DNA from: an uncultured Clostridia bacterium
Lineage (GTDB): Bacteria > Bacillota > Clostridia > TANB77 > CAG-508
Direction: 5' to 3'
NCBI GenBank assembly: GCA_934133005.1
Contig: CAKPAI010000002.1
Coordinates: 132,657 to 196,656 of the forward strand
DNA: 64,000 nt
Made by a program: the position numbers and the translations under genes. This document shows, in pieces, positions 13,206-55,753 of this stretch (its first letter is position 1; each line of letters starts with the position of its first letter). The notes below the pieces were generated by a model, which did no database searches, was not told the origin of the DNA, and worked only from the letters and a program-made list of their open reading frames with translations.

Positions 13206-13240
13206 TATTTTTTCTAGATATTTTTTATCTTAATACTCTT

Positions 13241-30531: not shown

Positions 30532-30534
30532 GTT

Positions 30535-32566: not shown

Positions 32567-34190
<1,624 letters not shown>

Positions 34191-37317: not shown

Positions 37318-37575
<258 letters not shown>

Positions 37576-37618: not shown

Positions 37619-39151
37619 TTAATAATTTATTATTTTTGAACTTAAATATTTGTTTATCTCTTGTCCATTATATTTTAAATTTTGTAGTTCTATTTTTATA
37701 GCACCATTTGAAGTTTTATACTCATTTGGTATAGCAAAACTACCTGTATAACCGTTAACACCTGCTTGTTCTAGTTCACTGCTTGTAAGTGTTATAATGT
37801 TATCTGCAGTTTCTTGATTATTTACATACACTGCAATTTCGGCTCCAGAATCATACACAAATTCACTATCTAATTTTAATGAATAATATACTTTATCTGT
37901 TGATACTCTTGTAATTTTCAAACTTTCCACTGGAGATTTAGTTCTAGTTACCATAGTATCTTCAATCATTTCTTCTACAGATGCGTCTGCAAATATTGTT
38001 TTATATCCCATTTCAATATAATAGTTAGTATTTGGAGAAAGTCCTGTTACTCTATAAGATGTATTTGATTTATCAAGTGAAATATTGTATGGTGTTATAT
38101 TATCACCAGATATTCTTAGATATACAACATTATATTTACTTTCAGGGTCAGTTACTGAATAATTTACATCTATGTAAGTAACTCCTGAACTTAAACTATT
38201 TAATTTTATGCTTTTTGCAAGTGTTGCGTCATCTTTCTTGCCACTATTGCCATTATATATACTATCAAATCCTGCTGCGACATCTTTTATCCATTTATTT
38301 AAATCATCTACCCAAGTTGTATCCATTTTAGTTCCAGGAGTAATATTGCTATTATTTCCAACATTTCCTGTTGTTCCCGAACCACCATTTATAATAGTTG
38401 TAGATGAATTATTATTATTTGTAGTAGAATTAGATGCATAATTTCCACCTTGATTTGGAATTGTGTTTTGATTTTCTTCAGTATTTTTCTCTTCTTCTTT
38501 TTCTACTTTTACATACTCGTTTGTACTTCCAAGTATCCTTTTTAAATTGATTGATGCTTCTTCTTGTTTAAATGTAAGTTGTTCATTTGCAACATCAAAA
38601 TCAAAATCGCTTGTACTTATAACCATTTCATTTATAGTTTTAGCATCAATTTGGTTATTTAATAATTGAGCATTTCCTAATCTGTCCACTATTACAATTA
38701 AATAATTTTTAGTAGATAGTGAACCTGTGTTGTTTTCTATGTTTGGAGCTACTATCAAATATTTTCTATCTGCAATTTTATAAAATTTACAATCATTGGT
38801 TCCATTAATTGTATTGTAGTTGGTTAGTTTATTAACATTTCCTCCTTCGAAGACTTGGTAAAAGTCTCCGAAAAGAGTTAATGAATTTCTGTTTTTATCA
38901 AATGCTACTGAATAGCTTCCTAAATTGTATTCTTTGTCCGTTTGGCTTTCTTTTAAATAATATCCACCTGTCCATTTTTTAGACACTGTTCCTATATTTT
39001 CCAGCTCTATATAATTATAATCAGAGTCATATACACATATAGAACTTGATACTTCATACTCTGTTTTACCATTTTGCAATACTATAACTACTGCTCCTGC
39101 AAGAATTAGTAAAATTATTATTACTATAAACGTAAATATTGTAAAATTCAT
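37619..39151 (-). CDS. membrane-anchored surface protein with FN3-like domain, paralog of the N-terminal module of the giant proteins
   Basis: ORF 37619..39178 (TTG). The RBS-supported ATG at 39151 begins MNFTIFTFIVIIILLILAG (TM). KIADRKYLIVAPNIE matches KISATKYLILANNMK of the 1950-aa protein. Shared N/T/G-rich linker TNNNNSSTTIINGGSG. FN3-like LSPNTNYYIEMGYK. Confidence 0.65.
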   Translation of the reverse strand: MNFTIFTFIVIIILLILAGAVVIVLQNGKTEYEVSSSICVYDSDYNYIELENIGTVSKKWTGGYYLKESQTDKEYNLGSYSVAFDKNRNSLTLFGDFYQVFEGGNVNKLTNYNTINGTNDCKFYKIADRKYLIVAPNIENNTGSLSTKNYLIVIVDRLGNAQLLNNQIDAKTINEMVISTSDFDFDVANEQLTFKQEEASINLKRILGSTNEYVKVEKEEEKNTEENQNTIPNQGGNYASNSTTNNNNSSTTIINGGSGTTGNVGNNSNITPGTKMDTTWVDDLNKWIKDVAAGFDSIYNGNSGKKDDATLAKSIKLNSLSSGVTYIDVNYSVTDPESKYNVVYLRISGDNITPYNISLDKSNTSYRVTGLSPNTNYYIEMGYKTIFADASVEEMIEDTMVTRTKSPVESLKITRVSTDKVYYSLKLDSEFVYDSGAEIAVYVNNQETADNIITLTSSELEQAGVNGYTGSFAIPNEYKTSNGAIKIELQNLKYNGQEINKYLSSKIINY

Positions 39152-39207
39152 TTTATTTCCTGCTGCTAAGTTTCTCAAATGGTCTCACCTCCTATTTTCT
39201 ATATTCT

Positions 39208-42200
39208 CTAATTATTTTTGTTTATATATGCTGTATTATTTATTGTGCCTACTAATGTGTTTCCTACAAACAAGTTCATTTGAATTGTATACGTTCCGCT
39301 TGACTTGAATGTCTCTGGTAATATTACTTTATAATATGAAACTCCAGAATTCTCGCTATCTTCTTCTTGTCTCCACGTAGGTGTAAATGTACCACTTTGT
39401 GTTTGGCTATTCGTTAAATTATACATTGTGTATGTTATTTTATCAATTTTTGTAATATTGTAATAGCTATCATAGAATCTCATTTCACAAGAATTTTCAT
39501 TTTGTACTAATGCTGTACTTCCTATTGCAACATCTTGATCATTTTCAATCTTACTTATACTATATTTTTCTTCTTTATCTTCTGTATTTCCATCATTGTT
39601 CCTGTCATATTTTAATTTTATAACTGCTATATAGCTATAAGTTCTATAATCAATACTGCTTTGTTGTACATACACTGAGAAATTTGTTCCATAGTCATTT
39701 ATATTGAATTTTTTCTCAGTTATAGCACTTCCTCCAATTGGAGTTGAATATATTGGAACTTCATTTTCTTCTGTAAATTCTGGAGAACCTCCTTTATATC
39801 TATATACATGTAATTCATATTCTCCATATTCTTGTCCTTGAATCATTGCATCTGGATCTTGAACGGTAGTTGTTACTCTGATGTAATCAATTTCATTATT
39901 ATTTTGATTTACTTTTTGTCTTCTCATTGTCAAACCTATCTTTGGCTCCTGCAATGTATCTAAAGTAAATTCTGCTTCTTCTGTTTCAATTTCAACAAGT
40001 GCTCCATTATAAGTAACCATTGGTGTTATCTTTAATATATATTTCTTATTTATGCTGAATGTATTATAATCTGGACTTATTGATATTTTTTCATTTATAG
40101 CATTTATTAAGTTTTCTGTTTCATATTTTGCATTAGTTACAATAAGCTCTCCATTTTCATTTATCTCATATTTTGAATTTTCGCCTCTAACTACATTATT
40201 ATCAGTAAGTGGTACTAATGTTGTACCATCAGCTTCATAGAATGCATATTTTGTAAATTCATACATATTTGACCTGTTTTGAGTTATTTTATAATCTATG
40301 TCTATATACTTTTCTTTATATTTTACAGCATCATACTTAATTGATATTGAATTAATTCCTATAGTTGCTAATGTTTCAAATTGATAAACAGCTCCAACTT
40401 CTTTTGTATCCATATCATATAAATATACATCGCTTACACCATCATTGTATCTGAATCTTATATAGTAATATTCAGCAGGTGATAAATCATCTAATACTAT
40501 AGTATTTTCAAATTCATTTTCTTGTAATAATTTTGTTATTACTGTATCACTTTTCCAATTTGGTTTAGCATCTTTATCTTTTGTATGGTATATCTCTATC
40601 GTTATTCCACCTGGAATTGTCATACTATTTGGTTTTATAAGTGAAGCACTAATTTCTGCTTTCTTTATACTTGTTTCTATTTTATTCATTTTTATTCCAG
40701 CTCTTAAACTTTGAATTGAAATAGTTTTTTCTGTTGCAAATTCTGTTTTTGCAATTTCTTTTTGAGTTATTATCATATCATTTTGTTTTAAGCCAGATTC
40801 AGTATATTGCATACTTAAAGTTACACCAGCAGTTCCATTGTTTATTGCATCAATGTTTGATATTCCAAGTCTTGCTTCGCTATTCTCTGCTGAGAAAGAA
40901 TAGTTATACATATTTCCTCCAATTTTATCTACTACTTCAAAGTTTGCATCATTTAAAGCTACATATGCGCCATTTGCATTTGTATATGCTGAATATTCAA
41001 ATGCATTTGTAGGAGCATATCCAATTACTCCATCATCATAATATAGAATTACTTCTATATTTGATTGTTTTCCTATAAAACTATCAAAATTACTATTTGT
41101 AGCTGCAAGTTCTAGTAAATCAACATCAAAGTAATAGTTATCATCATCGTTCACTTTTAATAACTTACTTGTCATTGTTTCTCCATTTTGTGTAAATTTA
41201 ACTTGAGCTGCTGCAATTCTTGAAGCTTTATCTCCGCTGAGCTTTAACCTAATACTATTAGGACTTTTATCATTATCATAAGCTATGCTTTCAATACTCA
41301 CATCATTACAATTTACAATTCCTTCAAATTTTTGTGTAACCATTGTTACAGTTTGATATACTTTTCCATTTTTTGCTTTATTTACGTTTTTATTATAGCT
41401 TAATGTAAATGTAACATTTTTCTGTGGTATATATATGCTTAGATTATCTAATTTTCCATCAGTTTTTACTTGAATATCACTATTTTGTATTGAACCATTT
41501 ACAGCAAGTATTAAATGAGCATATTCTCTTGTATCATTTTCGTTATATTGTAGAGCCGCATCCACATCTTTGCAAGAATATTTGTATGTTACTGTCGTAT
41601 CATCAGATGTTATTGGATACATTACAAAACTTGGATCTTGTTTTTGTGGATATAATATTTCTGTCTTTAATGTTTGTGTTGTATATTTTGAACTACCATC
41701 ATCTTCAGTTATATTAAGTGGCCATATTATATCATTTCCATTATTATCAGTATATGTTACTGTATATGAGAAGATATATCCATCACCTCTATGCAATTTT
41801 CCTGTTTCATTATCTTTTTCGATTGTATCAATTGTACCATAATCCAATTCGAATATTGCTGATGGAGCTTTATCTTGTGTCACAAAATTTAGTGTTTGTT
41901 TTAATTGTACTCTATTTCCATTATCGTCTGTTACATATTTTCCACTCTCATCTTTTTCATATATTGGATTTCCTTCAGCATCCCATACATAATATGTTAC
42001 AGATTTAGCACTTAAAGAACCAGTATTTGCAAACTTAGTTGATACAAAGTATCCAACTGCTGTGTTGTCTAATAAATTACTATCTTTTTCTAGACCATAT
42101 CTATTGGCTTCAGCATTTGTAATTACAGTAGCTGTTGGTCTTGCAGTATCTTCTGTAATATCTGCAGTCGTTCCTTTTCCTTTCACTATTATATATGCTG

Positions 42201-45060
42201 CTGTATATGTTTCTTTTGTTGATTTATTAGTATATGTTGTATCTCCTGTATTTATATCATCATCGTCAGCAGATTTAACTGGAATTTTATTTGTATACTG
42301 TGTTCCATCAACAGTAGCTGTTACAACAACTTGATAGTTTGCTTCAGTATAACTACTTTCATATCCACCACCTATTAAAGATGGAGTTACAACTAAGCTA
42401 TTTTCAAAGAATAAGTCTTGCAAACTGGCTACTTCTGTTGGATATTTTGCATTATCCACAACTTGATCAAAATTATTATTTGTTATTGTTCTTGACCAGC
42501 TATTATATTCACCACTATTTATGTCTCCAGATCCCTCATATACCATTATGTCTACACTAGATAAACTTTCTTCTGAGGAAATTGTATCAGCATCAAAACT
42601 AAGGTCAACAGTAAATGCGTTTCCAGCAGGTGCATTTTCTGGTACAGATAAATTAGCTGTTATTGGACTATACTTATCTGTTGTAATTATGCTACTTCCA
42701 ATATAAGCATTCTTATATCCTCCTGAAGTACTTTCTTCATCTTGTAAATCTACAGTTCCATATGCTGAGAATGTATATGATGTTTGTGCTTTTAATCCGT
42801 CTTTCTTATTTCCTTCTTTACCAAGATCAACGTTAATTCTTATTACACTATTTCCATCAACATCTTCTGTCTTTCCATATAATTTTCCATCTCCATATGC
42901 ATCAAGATTTGTTATTTTTAAATATGTTGTATTTTCAACTACGTCACTATAATAGCTTATTGTTAATGGATTTTGGTCATCTACTACTATTGTATTTTGG
43001 TTATCGATTATGTCTAAGTATCCAATTATTTCTGTTGTTTCAAAGTCATTGTTTGTTGCTTTTGTAAATTTAACCGTTGGGAAAGTTTTTCCATTTAATG
43101 AGAAAGCTCCTGCAATTGTACTCTCTACATCAACATATTTCTCATTGTCATATGTTGTCGCAATTACTTTAAATCCATATGATTTTCCTCTTATAATCGA
43201 ATCATTTGATTGCTCATTTCCTACATCTATAACAATATTTCTATCTGTTGTTTGTTTTTGATAAACAGGATTTTTTACATCATATGTTGTCTCATATAAA
43301 CCATCATCATTTAATATAGTTTTAAATTCATATACATAATATTCATATGATTTAATCGCAGAATCTTTATCTGTTACTTCATCAATATATAATGTAAATG
43401 TTCCATCTCTTTTATTTACAGCATAATTTAGCTTATCAATGCTTGCTTTTTCTTTTAAAGTTTGGCAGTTATAATATATTGCCCAATTTTCACCTTCTTG
43501 AACTGCTCCATTGTAACTTATATTTTTTACTTTTACTATATAATTTGTATTTGCCTCAAGTCCAGTAAATTCAACTTCTTCAATTCCGCCACTGTTTTTC
43601 TTTGTTTGATTTTGATTTATAATTTCATTACCATTAGCATCTAATAAATATATTTCCGCACTATCAACATTTGAATCTTTAAATTCTAGATTGAATGTAA
43701 GTGAATTTGCAGTATAAACTTCCTTGCTTATTTCAACACCTATTGAAGATGTTACAAATGTTTTATATAAGAAATTTTTTGTATATACATTGTCATTTAA
43801 AGTATATGTTGCAGTTGCTACTATTGAATAGCTTGTATCAGGTAATAATGTTTGAACATCTATTGGTATACTAAATGTTCCATATGCCTCTTCATCCATG
43901 TATACAACTTTTCCAGTTGCATTGTTTGTAATTTTTATAGTAACATTATCATTTTTTGATAATAAGTCTTCATCATCAGTAATTTGAACTGTTGCTTTTA
44001 TTCCTACTGAAGATATATCCATATCCTCTAATTTAAACTTAGGTTCAGTCTTTGATACTGTTTCATCAACTTTTGTTTCATTATTTTGTATATATTGATA
44101 AATAATATTTACTATTTCAAGGTTTACTTTAGTTTCATCATTTTCTATATTTGTATCAGTTGTTGTTCCTGCATTTGAACCACCATTTGTTCCACCGTTT
44201 CCACCATTTATTATTGTTGTTCCTGAATTGTTGTTATTTGTAGTATTTGTAATTGTTGTGCTACCGCCATTTCCGCCTGTAGTATTATCTATTTCTGTAT
44301 TTTCTTCTGTATTAGTGTTAGTATTTTTATTTTCATTTAAATCAATTAATGTAACATTATCATTAGAATTTATTACCATATCTTCTAAACTCATTTTGTT
44401 TTCATCATTTACACTAACAATTTTTGTTCCTAAATTTAACTTAACACCACTGCTTAATTCTATAAAAGAGTCTGAAGAAATTGTTTGATAACTGAATTCT
44501 TGATTATAAATATTAACAACCTCGCTATCAGAATACTCTACTTCTAGATATCCTGTTACATCTTTTGTATTTCCATTATTAAGTGTTACTTTCATATTAT
44601 TTGCTAAAATCAAATACTTTGTAGCAGATATTTTCCATATTGCTTCTTCAAAATTAACATCTTCTTTTAAATTTTGTACAGTATATCTATTTGAGACTTT
44701 TTTTATCTCTTTATTTGAAGCTACATTATAGTATACAATTGGATCATCATTTATTTTTGACAAATCTAATAAAACACCATCTTGTAACGATATAATATTT
44801 CCACTTGTATAGTGAATAAAATTATCATTACCTAGTGTAACCTTTGTTCCCTCTGTATCATTAAAAACTATTTGTTTATCATAAGATGTTGTATATTTCT
44901 CTTTTTCATAGAAATAATACCTATCTGATGAACCGTTTAAAATATATCCAGATTCAGCAAATTCCATCCTCTTACTTTTTTGTACATTTATTACATTAAA
45001 TGTAAGTACTGTTCCTAATATTAGTCCTATCATTATAAAAAATACAATATACTTTTTCAT
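39208..45060 (-). CDS. giant secreted/anchored surface protein (1950 aa) with multiple FN3-like/Ig-like repeats
   Basis: AAGGAG RBS, N-terminal signal/anchor MKKYIVFFIMIGLILGTVL, N/T-rich linker, repeated L-P-x-T-x-Y-x-[IV] FN3-like strands (LLPDTSYSIVATATY, LEANTNYIVKVKN). No C-terminal TM. Confidence 0.8.
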   Translation of the reverse strand: MKKYIVFFIMIGLILGTVLTFNVINVQKSKRMEFAESGYILNGSSDRYYFYEKEKYTTSYDKQIVFNDTEGTKVTLGNDNFIHYTSGNIISLQDGVLLDLSKINDDPIVYYNVASNKEIKKVSNRYTVQNLKEDVNFEEAIWKISATKYLILANNMKVTLNNGNTKDVTGYLEVEYSDSEVVNIYNQEFSYQTISSDSFIELSSGVKLNLGTKIVSVNDENKMSLEDMVINSNDNVTLIDLNENKNTNTNTEENTEIDNTTGGNGGSTTITNTTNNNNSGTTIINGGNGGTNGGSNAGTTTDTNIENDETKVNLEIVNIIYQYIQNNETKVDETVSKTEPKFKLEDMDISSVGIKATVQITDDEDLLSKNDNVTIKITNNATGKVVYMDEEAYGTFSIPIDVQTLLPDTSYSIVATATYTLNDNVYTKNFLYKTFVTSSIGVEISKEVYTANSLTFNLEFKDSNVDSAEIYLLDANGNEIINQNQTKKNSGGIEEVEFTGLEANTNYIVKVKNISYNGAVQEGENWAIYYNCQTLKEKASIDKLNYAVNKRDGTFTLYIDEVTDKDSAIKSYEYYVYEFKTILNDDGLYETTYDVKNPVYQKQTTDRNIVIDVGNEQSNDSIIRGKSYGFKVIATTYDNEKYVDVESTIAGAFSLNGKTFPTVKFTKATNNDFETTEIIGYLDIIDNQNTIVVDDQNPLTISYYSDVVENTTYLKITNLDAYGDGKLYGKTEDVDGNSVIRINVDLGKEGNKKDGLKAQTSYTFSAYGTVDLQDEESTSGGYKNAYIGSSIITTDKYSPITANLSVPENAPAGNAFTVDLSFDADTISSEESLSSVDIMVYEGSGDINSGEYNSWSRTITNNNFDQVVDNAKYPTEVASLQDLFFENSLVVTPSLIGGGYESSYTEANYQVVVTATVDGTQYTNKIPVKSADDDDINTGDTTYTNKSTKETYTAAYIIVKGKGTTADITEDTARPTATVITNAEANRYGLEKDSNLLDNTAVGYFVSTKFANTGSLSAKSVTYYVWDAEGNPIYEKDESGKYVTDDNGNRVQLKQTLNFVTQDKAPSAIFELDYGTIDTIEKDNETGKLHRGDGYIFSYTVTYTDNNGNDIIWPLNITEDDGSSKYTTQTLKTEILYPQKQDPSFVMYPITSDDTTVTYKYSCKDVDAALQYNENDTREYAHLILAVNGSIQNSDIQVKTDGKLDNLSIYIPQKNVTFTLSYNKNVNKAKNGKVYQTVTMVTQKFEGIVNCNDVSIESIAYDNDKSPNSIRLKLSGDKASRIAAAQVKFTQNGETMTSKLLKVNDDDNYYFDVDLLELAATNSNFDSFIGKQSNIEVILYYDDGVIGYAPTNAFEYSAYTNANGAYVALNDANFEVVDKIGGNMYNYSFSAENSEARLGISNIDAINNGTAGVTLSMQYTESGLKQNDMIITQKEIAKTEFATEKTISIQSLRAGIKMNKIETSIKKAEISASLIKPNSMTIPGGITIEIYHTKDKDAKPNWKSDTVITKLLQENEFENTIVLDDLSPAEYYYIRFRYNDGVSDVYLYDMDTKEVGAVYQFETLATIGINSISIKYDAVKYKEKYIDIDYKITQNRSNMYEFTKYAFYEADGTTLVPLTDNNVVRGENSKYEINENGELIVTNAKYETENLINAINEKISISPDYNTFSINKKYILKITPMVTYNGALVEIETEEAEFTLDTLQEPKIGLTMRRQKVNQNNNEIDYIRVTTTVQDPDAMIQGQEYGEYELHVYRYKGGSPEFTEENEVPIYSTPIGGSAITEKKFNINDYGTNFSVYVQQSSIDYRTYSYIAVIKLKYDRNNDGNTEDKEEKYSISKIENDQDVAIGSTALVQNENSCEMRFYDSYYNITKIDKITYTMYNLTNSQTQSGTFTPTWRQEEDSENSGVSYYKVILPETFKSSGTYTIQMNLFVGNTLVGTINNTAYINKNN

Positions 45061-45267
45061 ATTTTTTTATCTCCTTGCATTTGTTCAAAAATCTTCTTTT
45101 ATAGCTTATCATACTGGTTTTGAAATTTCAATACACATTTTTTCCATTTTTTTTAATTTTATACCATTAATGTGTAAACCTCTCTATTTTTCAAGCATTT
45201 TCGAGCTTATTTTGCAATTTCTCTCATTATTTTTTTTTCATTTCATTTTTGTTACAAAAAAATTACA

Positions 45268-45295
45268 CTATCCTCATTGTGATAGTGTAACTTTA
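45268..45295 (-). terminator. rho-independent terminator after the 3484-aa gene
   Basis: TTACACTATC-N8-GATAGTGTAA 10-bp stem immediately after the stop, followed by T7 on the minus strand. Confidence 0.6.
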
Positions 45296-45298
45296 ATA

Positions 45299-48200
45299 TT
45301 ATCTATTACTTTTTCTATACATTACAATCAAAGCTAAAATTATTACTAAAACTATAATTGAAATCAATATAGTTCCTATATTTTGCATTGTTTTCTTTCC
45401 AGTAGATATGTTATTGTAATAGTTTGTTAATTCTTGACTCTTATTTATCTTTGCATTTTCTGTAGTTATAGTTGATGTTGTTGTATCTAAAAGTTCATTT
45501 GCACTATATACTACATAGTTTTGTGAATTTGAATCATATGCAGTTACATAACCTGCACTTGCGTTATTATTGCTACTTTGATTTGAGTTCGAAGGTTTTT
45601 CTCCTGTTGTATTTGTCTCAGTCATAGTATTATTCGAATTGCCACTATTTCCTGTTTCACTATTTTCAGTATTTTGCTTTAATTCAATTTCACTTGTTGC
45701 ATCAGCAATAGATTTTTTCTCTAATTTTTGTACTAACTCTTGAGCCTCTTTATAATCTTTTTCATCAATTTTATATGATAGATTTTCTAAACTCAATCCA
45801 TTTAATAAGTAACTTACAAAGTTTGTACTTTCATTATTTACTCCATTATCATATATTTCTTCACCAGTTATATAATTAAATCCATATACATTTCCTGTCG
45901 CAGAATATATTAAAACTATTTCACTGTCATTATTTAAGTTATTAGTCATTTGTATAATCTTTTCATTTTTAAAGTTTACTGGATATTTAATATCAGTTAG
46001 AAGATTATATATTTTACCATCAGTACCAAGAGTTGATTCATACTGCTTATTATTGTATGAATCTATTACTACAGAAGTTCCTACATTAGAGAACTTTCCA
46101 TCAATTACATACATAGTACCTTTTTTGATAAATATTTGTCCATCTTTGAATACATTTGTTCCATCTTCTTCTGTTACTTTTGTACAATGATAGAATGTTT
46201 GAACTTTTTTACCTAAATATGTGCTTTCTGTTATTGGAGTAATATTATCTAATAATTTCATTCCAGATACATTTCTAATATTTTTCATAGAACTTAAATC
46301 ATAAACATTTCCATTTGAATCTAGTACTTCGCTCTCATATAAGTTTGTAAAAGTTCCTTTTATTGTTCTTTTATTTGAATTTAGACTTCCATCTGATAGA
46401 TAGAAATATTCATCATTAGATATTGCAAGCATATTTCTTATATCATCTGCTTCAAAATCTTTTGTATCCCAATAATTAGCATTTGTAATTCTTATAGTAA
46501 ATGGAGATTTAAAATCATATTCAAAAGTATATACTCTTTGATTTATTTTTTGCTTTTCACTTATAATTTCGCCATTTGAAGTTACAGAAAATGTTGCACT
46601 TGTATTTGCCTTGCTAAATTCAATATTTATTTTATCTGCTCCTACAGTATATACATAAACTTGTGGCAAGTCTTCTTCCAATTGATCATCCTCATAATAT
46701 GCTACTGGCATAATCTCATCATCTAAAAGCATTAAATTTGCTAACGTTGCTTCACTTGCTAGTTGTTCACTAAACAATCTTATTGTAGCTTCACTATAAG
46801 TTATTGTTCTTTCTGGTATTGCAAATTCTTTAATAGTTACTCCCATTTCACTCCAATAAGTTTGTGCTGAATAATTTGGTTTTAGTGTTGGAAAATATCC
46901 AGATTTATAATTGTATCTTCCTGTACCAAAGTTTAAGCCTTCATTTCCTACAGCAACTTGTCCTATAACAGTAGAACCAATTATATTTCCTTCTTCATCA
47001 TACTCATACTCGTATTCATCCTCATAGATTCTTACATTTTTAGTATAATTACTTACAACTTTTAGCTCATCACTAGTTATCATTTTATAGTTTTCATTTT
47101 CTTCTACAATTCCTGATACTTGTGTTTTTGTAGCTAATAATTGGTTTTGCAAATTGCTTCCATTATATATGTAAATATTATTCATATATTTTGCTTGAAA
47201 TAACCCATAGTCAGAATTTTTAATTGATGCAATTCCCATATCAGCATATTTGCTTGATGTAGATATAACATCTGTTGCAATTAAATTACACTCAATAATA
47301 TTATATTTTTCAACATCAGGATCATAATTTATTTCTTTATATATTTCACCAATTAAGCCTCCTGCTGAACTTTTAGCAGATATATTTATTGTCTCATCAC
47401 TGTTTGCAATATAGTTATATTTTATTGTAGCTTTATATTGTAAGTTATTTAATTTGCTATTATCAAAATATCCTACTATTCCACCGGCGCCTTCTCCTGT
47501 TGCTGTTACATCAGTATTTACAGCATAACAGTATTGGATATTTCCAACTTGGCTTCCTCCTGCGATTCCACCAACATAATTTGCTCCTTTTACATAGCTA
47601 TCTTCTATATATGAATGCCACAAATAGTAATTGCTAGATTTTATTGAATTTGCTGAAGTTCCAACATAACCTGTATAGTATCCAACAATTCCTCCAACAT
47701 AATTTCCTCTTCCTGTAACTGTAGTATTATTAGTTACAGCTCCACCATGTATTGTTCCTCTCTCATATCCTGCAATTCCTCCAACATAACCAGAACCAAT
47801 AATCGTTACATTTGATACATATGCTCCAGCAGTTGAATAATTTGAATTATTAGATGTTGATATTGAAGTATTAGTATACTCATTATATCCAACAGCTCCA
47901 CCTACATAATTTCCAGAAGCCGTTACTTGGCAGTTCTCAACTTTTAATTCTTTTATTCTTCCATTTGTCCATCCAACAGAACCAGATACATAGTTTCTAC
48001 CTATTATTTCTTGGTTTGTTCCTGTAGATAGTGAGTTATTTAAAGTAGCATTATTGTTATTTAGTCTTCCTACATTTCCTGCTACATAATCTAATCCTTT
48101 AATATAATTGTTTCTAGATACAGGGTTTGAAACTGATGACCAACCAGTATTTCCATAATTTCCACCTACATAAGAACCCGTTGCACTCTTTGTTTTGTAG

Positions 48201-51200
48201 TCACTTACTTTATTTAGATTATTTGTTGCAATTATTATGTTATTTTCTGAAGTTGCACTTATGCCACTCCATCCTCCTTGTTGACCATTGTTGCCTCCAA
48301 CATAATTTGCTCCAAGTATAATATTATTTGTTGAAACCATATTATTGGTTGAACTTGCACCATTTCCACAATTTGCACCTACATAATTTCCAGTTCCTAA
48401 AATTATACTATTGCTTACTTTTGAGTTATAGAAAGTTGATCCACTTCCACCATATTCACCAATCGCTCCTCCAATGATACTTCTTCCTTTTATTAAGTAA
48501 TCGGTTTCTTCATCGCTATCTTTTTTACCATTTTCAGAATATTGATATGCATAAACTCCATTGATTGTATTTTGTGTACTTCCGAATATTCCACCAGCAT
48601 AATCGCCCGATGCAGTTACCTGTAAATATGTTCCTTTTATGTTACTTGTTGATCCCAATGACGCTGTATATCCACATAATGAACCAACATAGCTTTCACC
48701 TGTAACATTCATTCTATTTAGTGTAATATTATTAAATCTACCAGAAACTGCTCTTGATACTACTCCGACGTAATTCTTTCCGCCTTCGATAGTTATGTTA
48801 TCAAAAGTACAATCCTTCATTTCTCCTCTTAGTATGCTAATGATTCCACTATAATTTCCAGTACATGTAATCTTAGAATCTTTAAAGTGAATATTTTCGC
48901 AATTTGTTTTTATTTCTTTTATAAGACCAGAACTATCTCCTACTGATATATTTACATTTTTAAATGAATATTCTGTACTTCCTTCTAGTCTACCAATTAC
49001 AACATTTGTTACAATATGATCAACTGTACTAAAATCAATATCTCCAGTTATTCTTACATTTTGACCTATGTAATTTTTTCCTGAATTTTCAAAAAAGTCA
49101 TTCCACTCATCAGCATTTGAAATACCTTTATATAATGTAACTTTTATTTTCGTTGATATTTCTTTTTGTACAAAGTTTGTTCCATCTCTTGTATAAATTA
49201 TATTTTCAATTTTATAACTTTCAAAAGCTTTATTTGGAGTTGCAACAAATTTTGCTATTGTAAGTCCTGTTCCTTCCTCCTTTGATGTAGTCCAGCTTCC
49301 ATCAACAACAGACATATCATTGTCTTCTATTGTTACACCTGTTAAACTTAAATCATTAGGATTTTCAAATTTCATTTCTACTGTAACATTTGTTTTGTCT
49401 TCTGATGGTGTAGAAGTAATACTATATAGTTTTAAATCATTATCAAGTGTAATTAGTTTTTGATTTGCAAGCAATCCACTCTTTGATGTATTCATTAATT
49501 GTGGGAAATATCTATTATTTAATAAATTCATTTCTTGACCATTTTGAACTATCGTTCTTGCAAAATTATCATCAAATTTTAACAAGTTTGCAAAAGTATT
49601 GTCTGTAAATATTTCATTATCTTTTAATAGTTTAGTTGCTCCATATAAATCTGTTTTCTTTTCGCCACTCATTAATTGGTCTGCATAAGCATAGTTATTA
49701 TATGAAGTAGTTCCGCCATTGTTTCCTAAAATTCTATTGAAGTTATATATACCTGTGTTTCCTGCTATATAAATATTTCCTAAGAATAAACAGTTTTGTA
49801 CTCCTGAAGCACCAGTATCACTATAACCTGCAATACCTCCAAAGTAAATATTTCCACTTGTAGTTTTTGTATTTAAGTTAATCAAACTATAACAATTCTT
49901 TACATAGCAAGAACCATATTTTCCAAATCCTAAAATTCCTCCTGCATTTGTAAATGTATTTATCCTTCCTGTAGTATAACAGTTTTGAATATAGAATACT
50001 GGTGAACCTGCTTTTACTCTTTCATCTGAGTCATGTCTTTTATAACCAACAATTCCTCCGATACCATCTACTTGAGTTACACTCGTTGCTTCAACATTAT
50101 AATTTTGTACATAACAGTTTTGTATATATGTAGTAACACCACCAAATGCATATAAGTTTCCAACAATTCCTCCTGCATCAATATACAATGAATTTGGAGA
50201 ATTAAATGTCAAATCAAATCCTTGAACAGAACAGTTTTGTACTTTTATACTGTCAGCTGGATTACTACTTCCACTACTAATTGAACCTACTATTCCTCCA
50301 TATTTTCCATTGTCTTTATTATATGACACATTCATTTCCATATTTGATATACTAACATTATCAATTAGTATATTATCAGTCATATCTGCTCTAGCAATCA
50401 TTCCTGCATATTGAGAATTTGTATTTATTGTAAAGTTATTTATATTAAGATTTTTTATTTCACCTTCTGCAAATCCTGCAAATAACGATTCTGTTCCACT
50501 TATGTTATTTATAGTGTGCACTTTTCCTTCATATTCGCCATCTAAGTAGCCTGTAAATGTTCCTGTTATATATGGGCTATATTCAGAATCAGCAAAATTT
50601 AAATCATTAACTAATCTATAGTTTTGTATTAATCCACTTACGCCATTTTCATCAGTTTGATCTATATTTGTCCAGTCTTTTTCGTTTGCTATCTTCTTTA
50701 CAAATCTTACATCAATATATCTTGTTCCCATTGCTTCATTTTCACCATATACTGATGTTTTTATGACACCATTTGCCTGCTTACTTTGAATCTTTGATAC
50801 ATTGTAAGTATCTAAGAATGAAGTTGGATTATTTAATAACATATATACTGTACTTACTCTCTTGCTATATGATTGGCTTAAAATTACTTCATCCAAATAA
50901 TCAACATCAATTACACTTATTGTTGTTCCTGCAGGGTTATAAACTCTAAATGAAACAAGTTTTGTATTTTCATCGGTCAAATCAACATTATTTAATGTAA
51001 TATATGAATTTATTTCATTTCTAACCTTATCTGTTATATCTAATGAACTTATATCATTATTTTCTATTACAGAACCTGAAAGTATATCAATTATTTCATT
51101 ACCTGTAATATCTATTTTTACATTGTCTTGTTTAGGCATACAATAATTTAGTTTTAATTGAGGATAATATCCATTTGAAACTAAATTTTCAACAGTAAAG

Positions 51201-54200
51201 TTTTTATAACTATTAGCATTTAATATTACTTCTTGAACCCCTGGTTCGTAAAGTCCTGTTGATGCTGTTTTAGTATTATAATCACTGTCATCATACATTA
51301 CTTCACAGAAATAGTAACAATCATTTACATTTGTTCCTGCATTTTTATTCAAAATACTTGGTCCTAAATATTGTTCTTTATTTTCTGCATCTAATTCTCC
51401 TGAATATTCAAAATCTTCATATGCAGTAATAATTGACATTACAGAATATACATTTCTTATAGTAGCACTGCATGATGGTCTTGATATTATCTGTCCTAAG
51501 TTATTAGTTACAGGTGGATATCCTAAATCATATACAATATTTCCTGCATAAGAATATGTTCCACTTGTATGATTTATTTTTATTGTTGTTGTATTAAATA
51601 TATTTTGCATTAGTCCATTATTTCCATCTAATTGAACTGCTACTCCTCCAATATATCTATAGTCATATGCAGCTATATCTCCATATGTTTCAATTCCTTG
51701 CCCATAAATATATCCATTTTGTATTGTTCCATGTGAATATAAGCAAACTCCTGCTATATATTGTGATGCATATAATGGTACTTCATAATCTATGATAAAG
51801 TTATCTATTTTTCCTGAATTGTCATATCCAAGTAAAGCGACATTTGCTCTTGCTTTTTGAGTTGCCTTCTTTAGTCTAACAATTACATTATCTATGTTTC
51901 CTTCATTATATAAGAATAGTGAATAATATCCATCTTCTTTTGCAGCTGGTACTTCAACAATTTTATCTCCAACTACAGTTACTGTCATTTTAGGAGATAC
52001 ACTATTTAAAGAATAATCTATTACAATATTCTTTAAATCAGCTTCTGCTCCTAATTTATAGAATATATATGAAGTTACTTCTCTTTTTGTTGTTAGCGAA
52101 TAAGTATCTTTAGTTATGGTTTTTCCATTGAAGTCTATTGTTCCATTAAATGTTATATTTGGATTTCCAAATGTATAAGATGTTGCTCCTCCAGCATTAC
52201 TTAAATCTATATCATTTAATAGTATATAATTTCCATTAGGTTGTATCTCTAGAAATTCATCAATTGTTGATATACTCTTAATTTCAGTTTTAGCATTTAC
52301 GTCATATTCAAAAGTTACTTGTGACAATACATATTCCCTACTATATTGCCTTATTATAAGCTCTACTGTGTAATCAATAGTATCATTTCCACTTTCTTCA
52401 ATAATATATTTTTTCACTTCTTCGATCATAGTTACAGAATCATAATTATAATCAAATTCTTGTACTTTTGTTTGATTTGAAGAATTTTTAGAAGTTATTT
52501 TTATATAATATTTACATGAATTTGCACTTTCATCAAATGTAACATGTTTTTCATCTATAAATTTAACATCCATATTTGCATAGAATGTATATTTATATTT
52601 TTCATAACTTGTCGCAGAATTTCCTTTTTCTGCTTGTAAATCTTTTACTTTCAAATAATAGTCTTTTTGATTTATAACTTCTTCATCATCAGTTATTTTT
52701 TCACCATCTTCATTGGTCTCGCCAGGAATTATATCCACTTGTGAATAATCTTCTAGGTAAAAACCTACAAAACCATCATCTGGTACAGTTATTGTTTGTA
52801 CAAATTCTGCCCAATTATCAGTTGTTATTCCACTAAGTTCAGTTATATTTCTGCCAATTCCTTTTCCTAATTGCATATATATTTTTGGTGTTCCTGTTGC
52901 TACAGGATTGTTATCTTTCCATTGATATTGTGCCTTAAACGATAATGTAACTTTTTCACCCACATAATTTCCTAAATCATAAACATAACATTGATTTGAT
53001 AAGAATGTAATTTGATTACTATTTTCATCATATGTCTTACCATAATTATACTTAGATCTTGTTTCATAATTTACAACATCATTATCTAATACATACTCTG
53101 TCTCTAGTACACCAAATGTTTTTGCATACCAATTGTTGTTAGATGATACATCTATAAGATTCTTTCCATTATCTGCAATTTCTCTTTGAAGTCCTATTAA
53201 ATCTATACTTCCTCCAAGACCACTTGTAGTAAACTCTTTTTTACCAATTTGATAATTGTTTTGAACTTTATTAGCATTATTAGTCTCATTATACGAAGCC
53301 GCCTCACAAGTGAATGTATAAATTTCATTTTCTGTTAAGCCTTCATATGTTAATCTTATCCATCTGTTTGTAGGAATTTTAGTTGTGCTTTTTACTTCTT
53401 CTTTGTTCTCATCTATTACTTCTATAGTTGGCAAATATTCTTTTGAAAATCTGTCAACCAATCTTACTATTGTTAGATTATCAGCAACTGCTCCATCTTC
53501 ATCGTCAATATAAATATCCATATCAATTAAGTTTGTAGTTGCAATTACATTTCTTATTTGAAGGGTTGCTGTTTTCTTGTTTGTCATAAAACTATTTGTA
53601 GTATATGATGTTACAATTTCTTTTTCTACACTTCCTTGTTTTGCTACTGCCTTTAACTCAATTTTATATGTTGTATTTGATTCCAAGTTTTCAAATAAAT
53701 TTGCAATTCCATCAGTTTTTAATGAATTTATATCGTCCATAAATACTGATTTAATTTCATTATTCTTACTATCTCTTATAATCATAGTGACATTTTGTAA
53801 AATATTAACTAGCCTATGATCTGTTTTGTCTGTATTTATTGTGGTCCTTAGATTTGCACTACTTGATGTTATATCATTATCTATATCATATGTTACTTCT
53901 AATTTTAAACTACCTAATTTACTTAAACTTAATGTAGTAAATGTTGCACTTCCAATTTCTTGATCTTGTTTTATTCCATTACCATCACCTATATCAAAGT
54001 CACCAAAAACTCTAATTGTATAAGTATTTTCTGGATCTAAATCGCTAAATTCTAATTTATTATCACCTATTTCTAAGTTATCTCTTTTTACTACTTCACC
54101 ATTACTTGATAATAAAATATATCTATAATTATCTATCGTTACTTTATCTTCATTTATTAAAGATACATTTATCGTTACACTTGTTACATTTTGTGCATTT

Positions 54201-55753
54201 ACATTAACTTTTGTAGCTGGAGCTTTCTTAGAAGTTTCTGTATTTCCTGTATTATTCTTTACATTCATTTTATTTCCAGCAGTGTCATATAAGTTAATTT
54301 CGTAGCTGTACTTAGAATTTGATTTTAATCCTTCTGGCGATTGATATGTAATACTTCCTCCATTTATAATATTTCTTAATAGTCCAGAAGATATTGAATA
54401 TGTTGCTCCATTTATGATTATTTCACCTTTTGAAATTCCAAAAACTGCTTCATCTTTAATATCTGAACTAATTTTTATATCTTTTATTTCTATTTTATTT
54501 GAGTATCTTTGTCCATTTTCAAAACTTAGTTCTATTGGATTTAATATATCAATCCCTTTTGTAGTTATTTCTTGTTCATATAATGTATTTTCAATTAAGC
54601 TTCCTTCTTTATTTCGATATTGATATTTTGCAACAATTGTATATGTGGTATCTGGTAATAATTTGGTTACACTTACTGTTCCAGATGAAGTTGCAGAAGT
54701 TCTAAATGCAAGTTGTCCATTTTTATAAAAAGCATATGTTACACCCTTCATTACTCTACTTGGATCTTTAATCGACACTTCAGCATATGATGTATATACA
54801 TTAGCTGTAAATTTAGAACTTTCGACTGTAGGTGCAATCCATTTTACTTCCGGAGTAGGTCTGTCATTATTCTTATTATCATCTTCACTTGGAGTTGTTG
54901 GAATTACTTCTGTATTTGTTTCTACATTATTTTCTGGTTTTTGTTCTGTATTATTTTCTGATTCAGTATTTTTTTCAGTATTTGCCTCTACATTATTATT
55001 TTTATCTTCTCTTGGTTTGCTTTCTTTTATAATCTTTAATCCAATTAAAAATTGTTTATATGTATATTCTTTATTATAGTCTTCTAGTTTTATTATAGAA
55101 TTTTCATCAATATCAATTACTTTATTATATATAAACTCATCATTTTTTAATGTGTAGTAAGTTATAAAACTATTTGTAAAATTTATAATACTATTCATTG
55201 GAATTGTATATTCATTAAACATTGTTTTAATTTTGATTTCTTTTGCATTTACATATAAATTATCTTTGTTTTTCATTAAAATATAGTCATAATAATCAGC
55301 TCTTTCAAGAGTATTTGAATTATATAATGCCCCTGATGTAAGAGTAAAACCTGAATATCCCTCTATTTCCTGAAAATCATCAGTTATTAGAGTGACATCA
55401 GAAGATAAGTTATACACAGCTAATGATCCATTTATATATATAGGATAATTCAAATTTATATTATCTTGCTTGCTAGCACCCAAATAATATGAATTCAAAT
55501 TTTGATATATTGAATCCTGCTCACTTACCTTTAACGCCTTTACCGTATTATCTACATTAAATGTTGAATTTAATAAATTACTTGTTATATCTTTTCCAGA
55601 TACTGCATATCCATTATATTCCATCGTCATATATGGTATGAATCTCAAATATATTATATATATAACTAGCAATATTATAATTAAAAAACTTAATAATGTG
55701 ACAAAAAATAATGGTGTCTTTGTCAATTTTCTTTTTGTTCCTCTATTTTTCAT
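45299..55753 (-). CDS. giant surface protein (3484 aa), N- and C-terminally membrane-anchored, FN3-like repeats plus GLUG/beta-helix-like repeat region
   Basis: AGGAG RBS. N-terminal TM (LFFVTLLSFLIIILLVIYIIYL) and C-terminal TM (IGTILISIIVLVIILALIVMY + RKSNR). FN3-like LLPDTTYTIVAKYQY and NTYTIRVFGDFD. The central region has repeated (I/V)(Q/K)NC(Y/S) ... GGI(V/A)G rungs. Confidence 0.8.
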   Translation of the reverse strand: MKNRGTKRKLTKTPLFFVTLLSFLIIILLVIYIIYLRFIPYMTMEYNGYAVSGKDITSNLLNSTFNVDNTVKALKVSEQDSIYQNLNSYYLGASKQDNINLNYPIYINGSLAVYNLSSDVTLITDDFQEIEGYSGFTLTSGALYNSNTLERADYYDYILMKNKDNLYVNAKEIKIKTMFNEYTIPMNSIINFTNSFITYYTLKNDEFIYNKVIDIDENSIIKLEDYNKEYTYKQFLIGLKIIKESKPREDKNNNVEANTEKNTESENNTEQKPENNVETNTEVIPTTPSEDDNKNNDRPTPEVKWIAPTVESSKFTANVYTSYAEVSIKDPSRVMKGVTYAFYKNGQLAFRTSATSSGTVSVTKLLPDTTYTIVAKYQYRNKEGSLIENTLYEQEITTKGIDILNPIELSFENGQRYSNKIEIKDIKISSDIKDEAVFGISKGEIIINGATYSISSGLLRNIINGGSITYQSPEGLKSNSKYSYEINLYDTAGNKMNVKNNTGNTETSKKAPATKVNVNAQNVTSVTINVSLINEDKVTIDNYRYILLSSNGEVVKRDNLEIGDNKLEFSDLDPENTYTIRVFGDFDIGDGNGIKQDQEIGSATFTTLSLSKLGSLKLEVTYDIDNDITSSSANLRTTINTDKTDHRLVNILQNVTMIIRDSKNNEIKSVFMDDINSLKTDGIANLFENLESNTTYKIELKAVAKQGSVEKEIVTSYTTNSFMTNKKTATLQIRNVIATTNLIDMDIYIDDEDGAVADNLTIVRLVDRFSKEYLPTIEVIDENKEEVKSTTKIPTNRWIRLTYEGLTENEIYTFTCEAASYNETNNANKVQNNYQIGKKEFTTSGLGGSIDLIGLQREIADNGKNLIDVSSNNNWYAKTFGVLETEYVLDNDVVNYETRSKYNYGKTYDENSNQITFLSNQCYVYDLGNYVGEKVTLSFKAQYQWKDNNPVATGTPKIYMQLGKGIGRNITELSGITTDNWAEFVQTITVPDDGFVGFYLEDYSQVDIIPGETNEDGEKITDDEEVINQKDYYLKVKDLQAEKGNSATSYEKYKYTFYANMDVKFIDEKHVTFDESANSCKYYIKITSKNSSNQTKVQEFDYNYDSVTMIEEVKKYIIEESGNDTIDYTVELIIRQYSREYVLSQVTFEYDVNAKTEIKSISTIDEFLEIQPNGNYILLNDIDLSNAGGATSYTFGNPNITFNGTIDFNGKTITKDTYSLTTKREVTSYIFYKLGAEADLKNIVIDYSLNSVSPKMTVTVVGDKIVEVPAAKEDGYYSLFLYNEGNIDNVIVRLKKATQKARANVALLGYDNSGKIDNFIIDYEVPLYASQYIAGVCLYSHGTIQNGYIYGQGIETYGDIAAYDYRYIGGVAVQLDGNNGLMQNIFNTTTIKINHTSGTYSYAGNIVYDLGYPPVTNNLGQIISRPSCSATIRNVYSVMSIITAYEDFEYSGELDAENKEQYLGPSILNKNAGTNVNDCYYFCEVMYDDSDYNTKTASTGLYEPGVQEVILNANSYKNFTVENLVSNGYYPQLKLNYCMPKQDNVKIDITGNEIIDILSGSVIENNDISSLDITDKVRNEINSYITLNNVDLTDENTKLVSFRVYNPAGTTISVIDVDYLDEVILSQSYSKRVSTVYMLLNNPTSFLDTYNVSKIQSKQANGVIKTSVYGENEAMGTRYIDVRFVKKIANEKDWTNIDQTDENGVSGLIQNYRLVNDLNFADSEYSPYITGTFTGYLDGEYEGKVHTINNISGTESLFAGFAEGEIKNLNINNFTINTNSQYAGMIARADMTDNILIDNVSISNMEMNVSYNKDNGKYGGIVGSISSGSSNPADSIKVQNCSVQGFDLTFNSPNSLYIDAGGIVGNLYAFGGVTTYIQNCYVQNYNVEATSVTQVDGIGGIVGYKRHDSDERVKAGSPVFYIQNCYTTGRINTFTNAGGILGFGKYGSCYVKNCYSLINLNTKTTSGNIYFGGIAGYSDTGASGVQNCLFLGNIYIAGNTGIYNFNRILGNNGGTTSYNNYAYADQLMSGEKKTDLYGATKLLKDNEIFTDNTFANLLKFDDNFARTIVQNGQEMNLLNNRYFPQLMNTSKSGLLANQKLITLDNDLKLYSITSTPSEDKTNVTVEMKFENPNDLSLTGVTIEDNDMSVVDGSWTTSKEEGTGLTIAKFVATPNKAFESYKIENIIYTRDGTNFVQKEISTKIKVTLYKGISNADEWNDFFENSGKNYIGQNVRITGDIDFSTVDHIVTNVVIGRLEGSTEYSFKNVNISVGDSSGLIKEIKTNCENIHFKDSKITCTGNYSGIISILRGEMKDCTFDNITIEGGKNYVGVVSRAVSGRFNNITLNRMNVTGESYVGSLCGYTASLGSTSNIKGTYLQVTASGDYAGGIFGSTQNTINGVYAYQYSENGKKDSDEETDYLIKGRSIIGGAIGEYGGSGSTFYNSKVSNSIILGTGNYVGANCGNGASSTNNMVSTNNIILGANYVGGNNGQQGGWSGISATSENNIIIATNNLNKVSDYKTKSATGSYVGGNYGNTGWSSVSNPVSRNNYIKGLDYVAGNVGRLNNNNATLNNSLSTGTNQEIIGRNYVSGSVGWTNGRIKELKVENCQVTASGNYVGGAVGYNEYTNTSISTSNNSNYSTAGAYVSNVTIIGSGYVGGIAGYERGTIHGGAVTNNTTVTGRGNYVGGIVGYYTGYVGTSANSIKSSNYYLWHSYIEDSYVKGANYVGGIAGGSQVGNIQYCYAVNTDVTATGEGAGGIVGYFDNSKLNNLQYKATIKYNYIANSDETINISAKSSAGGLIGEIYKEINYDPDVEKYNIIECNLIATDVISTSSKYADMGIASIKNSDYGLFQAKYMNNIYIYNGSNLQNQLLATKTQVSGIVEENENYKMITSDELKVVSNYTKNVRIYEDEYEYEYDEEGNIIGSTVIGQVAVGNEGLNFGTGRYNYKSGYFPTLKPNYSAQTYWSEMGVTIKEFAIPERTITYSEATIRLFSEQLASEATLANLMLLDDEIMPVAYYEDDQLEEDLPQVYVYTVGADKINIEFSKANTSATFSVTSNGEIISEKQKINQRVYTFEYDFKSPFTIRITNANYWDTKDFEADDIRNMLAISNDEYFYLSDGSLNSNKRTIKGTFTNLYESEVLDSNGNVYDLSSMKNIRNVSGMKLLDNITPITESTYLGKKVQTFYHCTKVTEEDGTNVFKDGQIFIKKGTMYVIDGKFSNVGTSVVIDSYNNKQYESTLGTDGKIYNLLTDIKYPVNFKNEKIIQMTNNLNNDSEIVLIYSATGNVYGFNYITGEEIYDNGVNNESTNFVSYLLNGLSLENLSYKIDEKDYKEAQELVQKLEKKSIADATSEIELKQNTENSETGNSGNSNNTMTETNTTGEKPSNSNQSSNNNASAGYVTAYDSNSQNYVVYSANELLDTTTSTITTENAKINKSQELTNYYNNISTGKKTMQNIGTILISIIVLVIILALIVMYRKSNR

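Follow-up and report, generated by a model that had tools for sequence, protein, structure and literature searches.

Paralogous juxtamembrane modules in surface proteins encoded with a putative F-type ATPase derivative in an uncultured gut Clostridia bacterium

Why would a bacterium encode very large surface proteins in the same run of genes as the parts of a rotary ATPase? The question is raised by a stretch of 64,000 nucleotides (nt) from an uncultured Clostridia bacterium (contig CAKPAI010000002.1; hereafter the window, with positions counted from its first letter), in which three minus-strand open reading frames (ORFs) encode the proteins that we call A, B and C. An initial annotation had proposed that the three carry paralogous N-terminal modules and a shared low-complexity linker, and that the locus grew by duplication and domain accretion with ATPase genes kept between the copies. 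The ORFs lie exactly where it had placed them. By profile comparison the modules of A and B belong to one family with that of a fourth protein, n269, which lies beyond the ATPase genes and had gone unmentioned, and the module of C is probably a divergent member. The balance of the evidence tips slightly towards a conserved membrane machine of several proteins, of which this region would encode the extracellular arms, docked by paralogous feet to an ATP-driven motor. Lengths in the following list are in amino acids (aa), and TM stands for transmembrane.

37619 to 39178, minus strand: A, 519 aa from a TTG start at 39178, or 510 aa from an ATG at 39151
39208 to 45060, minus strand: B, a 1950-aa surface protein (TM scan, profile homology)
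45299 to 55753, minus strand: C, a 3484-aa giant surface protein (TM scan, AlphaFold2 model, Pfam, profile homology)
31215 to 32024, minus strand: n269, 269 aa, an N-terminal TM helix and an all-beta domain of about 200 aa (TM scan, profile homology)
38546 to 39064, minus strand: N-terminal all-beta module of A (AlphaFold2 model; profile homology to B)
44311 to 44982, minus strand: N-terminal module of B (hhalign to A and n269; decoy-controlled jackhmmer)
55040 to 55636, minus strand: N-terminal all-beta module of C, aa 40-238 (AlphaFold2 model; hhalign)
38382 to 38426, minus strand: linker core of A (TTNNNNSSTTIINGG)
44201 to 44245, minus strand: linker core of B (TTNNNNSGTTIINGG)
45323 to 45379, minus strand: C-terminal TM anchor of C (TM scan; orthologues)

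By a hydropathy scan, A, B and C all begin with a TM helix. In the AlphaFold2 model of A, built from 93 sequences with a mean predicted local distance difference test score (pLDDT) of 80.8, the helix occupies residues 2-27 (510-aa numbering) and is followed by an all-beta module of about 20 short strands at 30-202 (pLDDT about 90), a disordered stretch at 211-276, a helix at 279-300 and two beta-sandwich domains at 314-508. B runs from a signal-anchor (aa 5-23) through its module (27-250) and a T/N/G-rich spacer (251-320) to FN3-like domains from residue 331. C begins with a TM helix (16-38), a beta module (40-238), a spacer (246-302) and an FN3-like array from about 301, and continues through beta-helix/GLUG-like regions (about 1120-2800) to an N/T/S-rich spacer (3360-3458) and a C-terminal TM helix (3459-3477). 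A model of its residues 1-330 gives a TM helix at 15-37, a beta module of about 21 strands at 40-231 and disorder at 246-302. TM scans, models and FN3 profiles therefore bear out the earlier description of an anchor, a domain of roughly 200 aa, a low-complexity stretch and FN3-like repeats. n269 is a TM helix followed by the bare module, a fourth and stand-alone copy. None of A, B and C contains an LPxTG motif.

Whether these modules share ancestry is not a question that single sequences can settle. Uncorrected BLASTP aligns A and B over 548 columns with E=4e-23, but composition adjustment reduces this to E=0.12, the best N-terminal match of any pair, with A-C and B-C nonsignificant; single-sequence evidence is therefore inadequate. 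We collected about 120 A-family proteins and 190 genomic relatives, of which 80 loci were retrieved; the B, C and n269 families were drawn from those loci, and the TM helix and linker were removed from the module profiles before comparison. The modules of A and B then matched in hhalign with a probability of 84% (P=7e-6, 79 columns), with reversed-profile controls at P of at least 0.02, and the quoted motifs KIADRKYLIVAPNIE and KISATKYLILANNMK, which the initial annotation had paired, align with one another in the best-scoring segment. A broad n269 profile, obtained from an exhaustive search that gave 382 clusters at 50% identity, matched B with a probability of 83% (P=8.5e-6, 173 columns). 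Searches with hidden Markov models (HMMs) were reciprocal and correct in position (A to B, 1.1e-5; B to A, 7.9e-6). With reversed decoys included, jackhmmer started from A found B in the first round at E=4e-5, the best decoy scoring 0.054, and when seeded with either A or B it converged on A, B and n269 with no decoy below 0.01. On the strength of these profile comparisons, the modules of A, B and n269 are paralogous.

No Pfam or NCBIfam model covers the module family, and all of its homologues are unnamed or labelled 'hypothetical'. Since A, B, C and n269 form separate orthologous groups in loci labelled both Clostridia and Bacilli, the duplications are, on this phyletic evidence, ancient. 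The proposal of growth by duplication and domain accretion thus stands in part: the colinearity of A with the start of B, the bare module of n269 and a metagenomic protein described below (P0201) are all in keeping with it, but the duplications are old rather than a growth of this locus itself. The family has further variants. One related locus (L082:16696-19666) holds two adjacent ORFs, each with an n269-type module far from its N-terminus: the 404-aa ORF has it at about 220-361, and the 571-aa ORF at 375-569 with a second, much weaker match at 211-358. An apparent extra half-module at aa 1816-1892 of B (independent E-value 1e-10 with an iterated HMM) was rejected because it arose from the iteration: HMMs of A and of B, used independently, gave E of at least 0.11.

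Beyond the linker, a Foldseek search pairs residues 314-508 of the A model with tandem FN3 domains of PDB structures (E about 6e-6, probability 1.00), 121 PDB matches having E<=1e-3. Against the PF00041 gathering threshold of 25 bits, a segment of C scores 37.8 and the whole of C 25.4, whereas B (24.0) and A (18.1) fall narrowly below it. The two FN3 domains of A are colinear with about 319-512 of B (hhalign probability 96%, P=1.3e-9), the arrays of B and C match over 397 columns (98%, P=7e-14), and the first FN3 domain of A matches C with P=3.9e-6; for both B-C and A-C the best register begins at the first domain past the linker. Because module, linker core and two FN3 domains follow in the same order in A and at the start of B, A is, by this colinearity, homologous to the first 520 or so residues of B over its whole length.

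The linker that joins these parts is shared by A and B. Their cores are identical at 38 of 45 nt (84%) and encode TTNNNNS[S/G]TTIINGG. At the protein level the best 15-mer has 14 of 15 residues in common, against a maximum of 10 in 3000 composition-preserving shuffles. Codon choice adds nothing to this: 9 of 13 codons are identical where codon usage predicts 7.4 (P=0.26), and the signal is therefore one of protein rather than of a recent DNA copy. Recent gene conversion was for the same reason set aside as unsupported. The exact TTIIN string was also rejected as a conserved linear motif, being missing from the B orthologues of other genomes, and a looser island, [ST][TSVI][IV][IVL], occurs in only 12-13 of 60 linkers, chiefly in the clade of the window. 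When the linker regions (38324-38521 and 44101-44310 in the window, with their equivalents in 60 loci) were compared, A and B linkers from one genome resembled each other more than those from different genomes (3-mer Jaccard 0.070 versus 0.030, permutation p<5e-4), which points to concerted evolution or to lineage-specific compositional drift. The claim of a linker common to all three proteins holds for A and B; the first spacer of C is rich in N/E/T/K/P, has no Gly and does not contain the shared core.

A itself may be slightly longer than first supposed. If the TTG at 39178 is used as the start, positions 39152-39178 encode an additional peptide, MRNLAAGNK, which fits a nearly invariant MRxLxxGNKxxF in alignments of A orthologues (23 and 93 sequences). 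A therefore most likely begins there and has 519 rather than 510 residues, and the conserved MRxLxxGNK peptide, lying on the cytoplasmic side, suggests a cytoplasmic contact.

C differs from A and B in being anchored twice. Having a TM helix at both ends, it would hold an ectodomain of 3400 aa tethered at both ends, and the C-terminal helix with its basic tail (region 45299-45700) is kept in 15 of 15 orthologues. Its GGIxG (GLUG-like) repeats are concentrated at aa 1819-1972 and 2658-2798. At about 1723-1802 (50348-50587, minus strand) C matches PF05342, the N-terminal region of the M26 IgA1-specific metalloendopeptidases (E=4.4e-9; 36.4 bits against a cut-off of 27.7). Neither an HExxH motif nor any other protease signature is present in A, B, C or n269. 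A metagenomic protein of 1693 aa (P0201) has a C-type body (E=1e-75 to aa 1117-2337 of C) behind an n269-type N-terminal module (E=6.6e-20) and lacks the FN3 array; read from these two matches, it is natural evidence that modules and bodies can be interchanged.

The ATPase genes lie in the same run. Twelve co-oriented, tightly packed genes occupy the minus strand from 55753 down to about 31215, with short gaps or overlaps between neighbours and a single strand throughout, and make up one apparent operon. Among them, in this order, are C, B, A, c-like, the 273-aa protein, alpha, gamma, beta, epsilon-like, the 196-aa protein and n269. The ATPase genes therefore stand downstream of C, B and A, beyond A, and not between the three copies as had been supposed; they come to lie between module genes only when n269 is counted.

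37318 to 37569, minus strand: c-subunit-like protein, 83 aa (PF00137 match)
36383 to 37204, minus strand: single-TM protein, 273 aa (N-terminal helix, charged stretch, C-terminal domain)
35031 to 36365, minus strand: F1 alpha-like protein, 444 aa, shortened at the C-terminus (below the atpA cut-off)
34227 to 35012, minus strand: F1 gamma-like protein, 261 aa (Pfam)
32820 to 34190, minus strand: F1 beta-like protein, 456 aa (Pfam, catalytic motifs)
32567 to 32830, minus strand: epsilon-like protein, 87 aa (position and size; weak PDB match)
31951 to 32541, minus strand: polytopic membrane protein, 196 aa, about 5-6 TM helices (TM scan)

Alpha, gamma and beta give strong Pfam matches. Their closest PDB relatives are bacterial F1 subunits (E about 1e-99 to 1e-123, the best from Bacillus PS3 and Caldalkalibacillus), and the G1-ATPase of Mycoplasma mobile (9io5) scores lower. 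Beta narrowly passes the NCBIfam atpD equivalog cut-off (480.9 versus 462.85) and has a complete set of catalytic motifs: Walker A GGAGVGKT, the catalytic GERxxEG in the form GERSREG, and a DELSDED loop. Alpha falls short of the atpA cut-off (419.3 versus 484.45) and lacks about 60 C-terminal residues. The NCBIfam models of the mycoplasma ATPases were not reached either, neither those of Type 2 or G1 (MMOB1660, 384 bits against a cut-off of 600; MMOB1670, 394 against 850) nor those of Type 3 (MSC_0619, 308 against 520; MSC_0618, 401 against 570). In some loci the alpha-like protein is longer than the usual 444 aa or so (683 aa at L003:12567-14618, 890 aa in L039 and 582 aa in L034), which implies lineage-specific extensions or fusions.

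The membrane part of the enzyme is more unusual. The c-like protein matches PF00137 and has an invariant GRNPETK loop, and both of its TM helices are free of acidic residues; where E. coli has D61 and PS3 has E56, 49 of 50 orthologues carry Ala, Thr or Ser. Pfam, NCBIfam and PDB-profile searches with the 196-aa and 273-aa proteins produced no a or delta subunit, and the family profiles of the two had no matches among PDB sequences. The polytopic 196-aa protein, in which no conserved membrane Arg was found, is a candidate membrane-sector component of the ATPase, the 273-aa protein is by its position a candidate b/delta-like stator stalk, and the 87-aa protein is an epsilon-like candidate by position and size. 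The top match of the epsilon-like profile among PDB sequences is mitochondrial delta, a homologue of bacterial epsilon, with a nonsignificant E of 0.63. Taken together, the family matches make the seven-gene set (c-like, b-like, alpha, gamma, beta, epsilon-like and polytopic) a derivative of the F-type ATPases. With a c subunit devoid of the carboxylate, no a or delta and a short alpha, it could not serve as an ion-coupled synthase; probably the enzyme hydrolyses ATP and turns its rotor without ion coupling of a known kind.

Conservation of the cluster provides the connection between these enzymes and the surface proteins. Relatives of A are spread over 190 species-level genomes from uncultured Clostridia and Bacilli of the gut, the labels among them being Clostridia, Bacilli, Erysipelotrichaceae, Tenericutes/Mollicutes and 'Mycoplasma sp. 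CAG:956'. In the comparison with homologous loci that the initial annotation had proposed, among 54 loci with full flanks, B is present in all 54, n269 in 52, alpha plus beta in 39 and a C-like gene in 35, making B-A-n269 the most constant trio. The linkage is retained across Clostridia- and Bacilli-labelled loci although gene order varies. L044, L046, L051 and L076, for example, read B-A-n269-c-(b-like)-alpha-beta-epsilon-(polytopic protein)-gamma, with a labelled b-like gene in L051 and L076 only. Full-text searches of the literature gave no description of the cluster, and it is apparently a conserved, undescribed machine.

The favoured reading, that of arms docked by paralogous feet to a motor, can be set out as a sequence of steps. 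A, B, C and n269 are each held in the membrane by an N-terminal helix, and C by its C-terminal helix as well. Directly outside the membrane stands the all-beta foot of about 190 aa, followed in A, B and C by a disordered spacer of 60-70 residues. Most likely, the feet would join with the TM helices in a hetero-oligomeric platform that sits at the membrane sector of the ATPase or surrounds it. ATP hydrolysis would there rotate gamma, epsilon and the c-ring without moving ions, and torque or conformational change would pass via the platform to the FN3 and beta-helix arms. The flexible spacers, which in C come both after the N-terminal module and before the C-terminal anchor, would let the arms span the cell wall, and the result would be mechanical work done at the cell surface, whether by binding and releasing, by pulling or by moving. 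Of these steps, we infer the physical association, the transmission of force, the spanning of the wall by the spacers and the biological output from anatomy and synteny.

Several observations weigh against such a machine. Synteny alone ties the ATPase to the surface proteins, and in 15 of the 54 full-flank loci the alpha and beta genes are absent within 10 kb of A. The b-like, epsilon-like and polytopic proteins have been identified by guesswork from their positions. C, the largest of the proposed arms, is also the one whose foot is hardest to place. Compared directly with A or B its module gives no match (hhalign P 0.07-0.29); it is weakly similar and colinear to n269 (P=4.5e-4), and likewise weakly similar to a merged profile of A, B and n269 (probability 48%, P=1.9e-4, 135 columns), the reversed controls of both comparisons staying at P of at least 0.07. 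In jackhmmer the first match from C to n269 (1.4e-3) is about equalled by a decoy (3.4e-3). The secondary-structure agreement of 62% between A and C in the hhalign register was discarded as uninformative because beta-hairpins are periodic, and shifts of 8-9 residues give 60-65%. A Foldseek search of PDB folds found no neighbour for the C module (best E 0.38). The modules of C and A do occupy the same position and have the same all-beta character, P0201 joins a module of the n269 type to a C-type body, and we hold that the C module probably, with appreciable doubt, belongs to the module superfamily as a divergent copy. Of the three paralogous modules proposed at the outset, two are thus secure by profile (A and B) and the third is probable.

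As a separate observation, the Bacilli-labelled loci that have B-A-n269 with no ATPase genes within 10 kb include L035, L037, L048, L049, L052, L055, L069-L071 and similar ones.

A bolder form of the favoured reading is more doubtful, and we advance it as speculation. In it the cluster would stand for a kind of surface machine, powered by ATP and so far undescribed, in gut Firmicutes of which at least some are presumably walled. An F-type motor that transports no ions would drive giant FN3/beta-helix legs via a ring or stack of feet, and the system is a possible ancestor of the mycoplasma Type 2 and Type 3 systems. Such legs might serve gliding-type motility, or might bind and let go of mucus, fibre or host surfaces in cycles. 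Some of the carrier genomes bear the label Mollicutes, Tenericutes or Mycoplasma sp. CAG:956. Were the coupling real, ATP-driven rotary mechanotransduction would reach beyond the mycoplasmas to other Firmicutes, the step from ATP synthase to the mycoplasma motors would have an evolutionary intermediate, and a role would fall to a set of proteins from common human gut bacteria that are very large, abundant and without any annotation. The paralogous foot module, for its part, offers a handle for the prediction of complex structures and for finding more members.

Among the alternatives, the one that survives best holds that A, B and C are ordinary membrane-anchored adhesins, and that the ATPase is the cell's own F-type ATP synthase, perhaps degenerate, and an incidental neighbour. 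Beta does pass the atpD cut-off, the nearest PDB relatives are canonical bacterial F1, and in 15 of the 54 loci no ATPase genes adjoin A. Furthermore, the ProAD survey lists 20 F/N-type operons whose c subunits lack Glu/Asp and finds that the gut lineages TANB77, CAG-508 and UBA660 seem to be without complete rotary ATPases (PMC11738941); these operons and lineages may include the present system, and the system may explain why such lineages seemingly have no complete rotary ATPase (PMC11738941). Chance adjacency does not, however, sit well with a linkage that survives rearrangement of gene order across Clostridia- and Bacilli-labelled lineages, nor with the place of n269, a paralogue of A and B, within the cluster at the distal end of the ATPase genes. 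A c-ring without its membrane carboxylate, the missing a and delta and the short, below-threshold alpha likewise argue against a working synthase. On these grounds we consider the incidental neighbour unlikely.

It is likewise improbable, and a little more so, that the giant proteins are exported or assembled by this ATPase, in the way that FliI/FliH/FliJ and SctN act in type III export, with the N-terminal modules as an assembly platform. F1-like ATPases are homologous to the export ATPases of type III secretion systems, alpha and beta match FliI/SctN models at 1e-50 to 1e-71, and very large proteins resembling cargo are encoded immediately upstream. The signal-anchor helices of A, B, C and n269 are nevertheless suited to insertion by Sec/YidC, the set keeps rotor parts (gamma and the c-ring) rather than an export gate, and homologues of the gate are absent from the family scans.

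That the similarity is compositional, A, B and C being surface proteins without common descent, of low complexity and rich in N/K/I/T, from a genome rich in AT, is very unlikely. The initial annotation had itself named this as the finding that would undo its proposal. The nonsignificant adjusted BLASTP, a linker DNA identity no greater than codon bias predicts, the lack of the exact TTIIN core elsewhere and the near-noise links of the C module would all suit it. The profiles freed of TM helix and linker, with their much poorer reversed controls, and the decoy-controlled searches that agree with them rule it out for A, B and n269, and the linker core that exceeds every shuffle and the colinear FN3 domains point the same way; for C, composition is less easily separated from descent. 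Least probable of all, and hardly to be credited, is a system for capturing or processing host proteins such as immunoglobulins in the manner of mycoplasma MIB-MIP, which the PF05342 match above its curated cut-off, the gut-commensal hosts and the requirement of MIB-MIP for a Type 3 F1-like ATPase (PMC12994834) might recommend, but which is opposed by the want of any protease signature in the four proteins, by the absence of MIB or MIP homologues from Pfam and NCBIfam scans and by the location of the M26_N match in a generic GLUG/beta-helix region.

The favoured reading of arms on an ATP-driven motor also has to be set in its host. The window is AT-rich (about 28% GC) and contains a run of ribosomal-protein-sized ORFs, PGI, HisRS and SpoIIP, and is therefore the chromosome of a low-GC Firmicute with a sporulation gene. 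The SpoIIP gene (55930-57075, plus strand) is divergent from the operon and the small ribosomal-protein-sized ORFs occupy 1-14000. The presence of SpoIIP beside the locus suggests that the host forms spores and is presumably walled. Identical beta, c and B protein sequences were found on 60-265 metagenomic contigs, which indicates a common gut species.

Some smaller features of the operon deserve mention. Promoter and terminator scans were uninformative in the AT-rich DNA of the locus. An inverted repeat with a 10-bp stem at 45263-45290, inside the 238-nt gap between C and B, is the sole terminator-like hairpin in the scanned regions (55650-56000, 30350-30600 and 44950-45400) and could be an attenuator between the two genes. 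Read from its TTG start, the n269 ORF overlaps the 196-aa gene by 74 nt (31951-32024); orthologue alignments suggest that its true start lies about 19 codons later. Directly after n269, a 218-aa protein with an N-terminal TM helix is encoded at 30535-31191 (minus strand). It has no homologue in 84 related loci, appears to be lineage-specific and is not counted in the system.

How, then, does the locus compare with systems already described? With canonical F1Fo it shares alpha, gamma and beta as neighbours in that order, which is also their order in canonical atp operons, as well as intact catalytic motifs and a c hairpin with an R-x-P-E loop. It differs in that c has no Glu/Asp, no a or delta is detectable, alpha is short, epsilon is reduced to about 85 aa and the genes are embedded among those of surface proteins. 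The surface proteins in turn resemble the Gram-positive FN3/GLUG giants, such as the N-terminal region of the streptococcal M26 IgA1 protease, in their FN3 arrays, GLUG-like GGIxG repeats, PF05342 match and low-complexity spacers beside the anchor. Unlike those giants they have TM-helix anchors in place of LPxTG, no catalytic domain and a family-specific juxtamembrane module.

The closest parallels come from the mycoplasmas, where F1-like ATPases of Type 2 (gliding) and Type 3 (MIB-MIP) have been proposed to drive surface proteins (PMC12994834, PMC3369863). Their F1-like X0 clusters comprise seven genes, one of them encoding a 12-TM protein and another a protein that has a signal peptide and, at its C-terminus, two TM helices, and have no c subunit (PMC12994834, PMC3369863). 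The Type 3 cluster, like the set described here, is an F1-like group of seven genes; there it is co-transcribed with upstream surface or membrane proteins, and the ATPase is required for the function of the extracellular protein system (PMC3369863, PMC12994834). In the present cluster there is no 12-TM ORF, no MIB and no MIP, and a c-like subunit is present.

The likeness to M. mobile gliding (G1 ATPase; Gli123, Gli349 and Gli521) lies in alpha-, beta-, gamma- and epsilon-like subunits with no Fo that can be recognised as ion-translocating, and in a proposed ATP-driven force that crosses the membrane to very large surface proteins (PMC12994834). Both systems have one small and two giant membrane-anchored surface proteins. 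The present alpha and beta are nonetheless nearer to canonical F1 than to G1, the beta has no N-terminal dimerisation extension, and the set keeps a c-like subunit where the mycoplasmas have the 12-TM protein. No Pfam or NCBIfam similarity to the Gli proteins was detected for A, B or C, although it was not checked whether those libraries hold Gli models. The present host, with SpoIIP, is presumably walled, and its surface-protein and ATPase genes form one apparent operon, whereas those of M. mobile are at separate loci. By its defining features the system therefore falls outside both the canonical F1Fo and the mycoplasma Type 2 and Type 3 families, and it is in logic that it resembles the mycoplasma systems.

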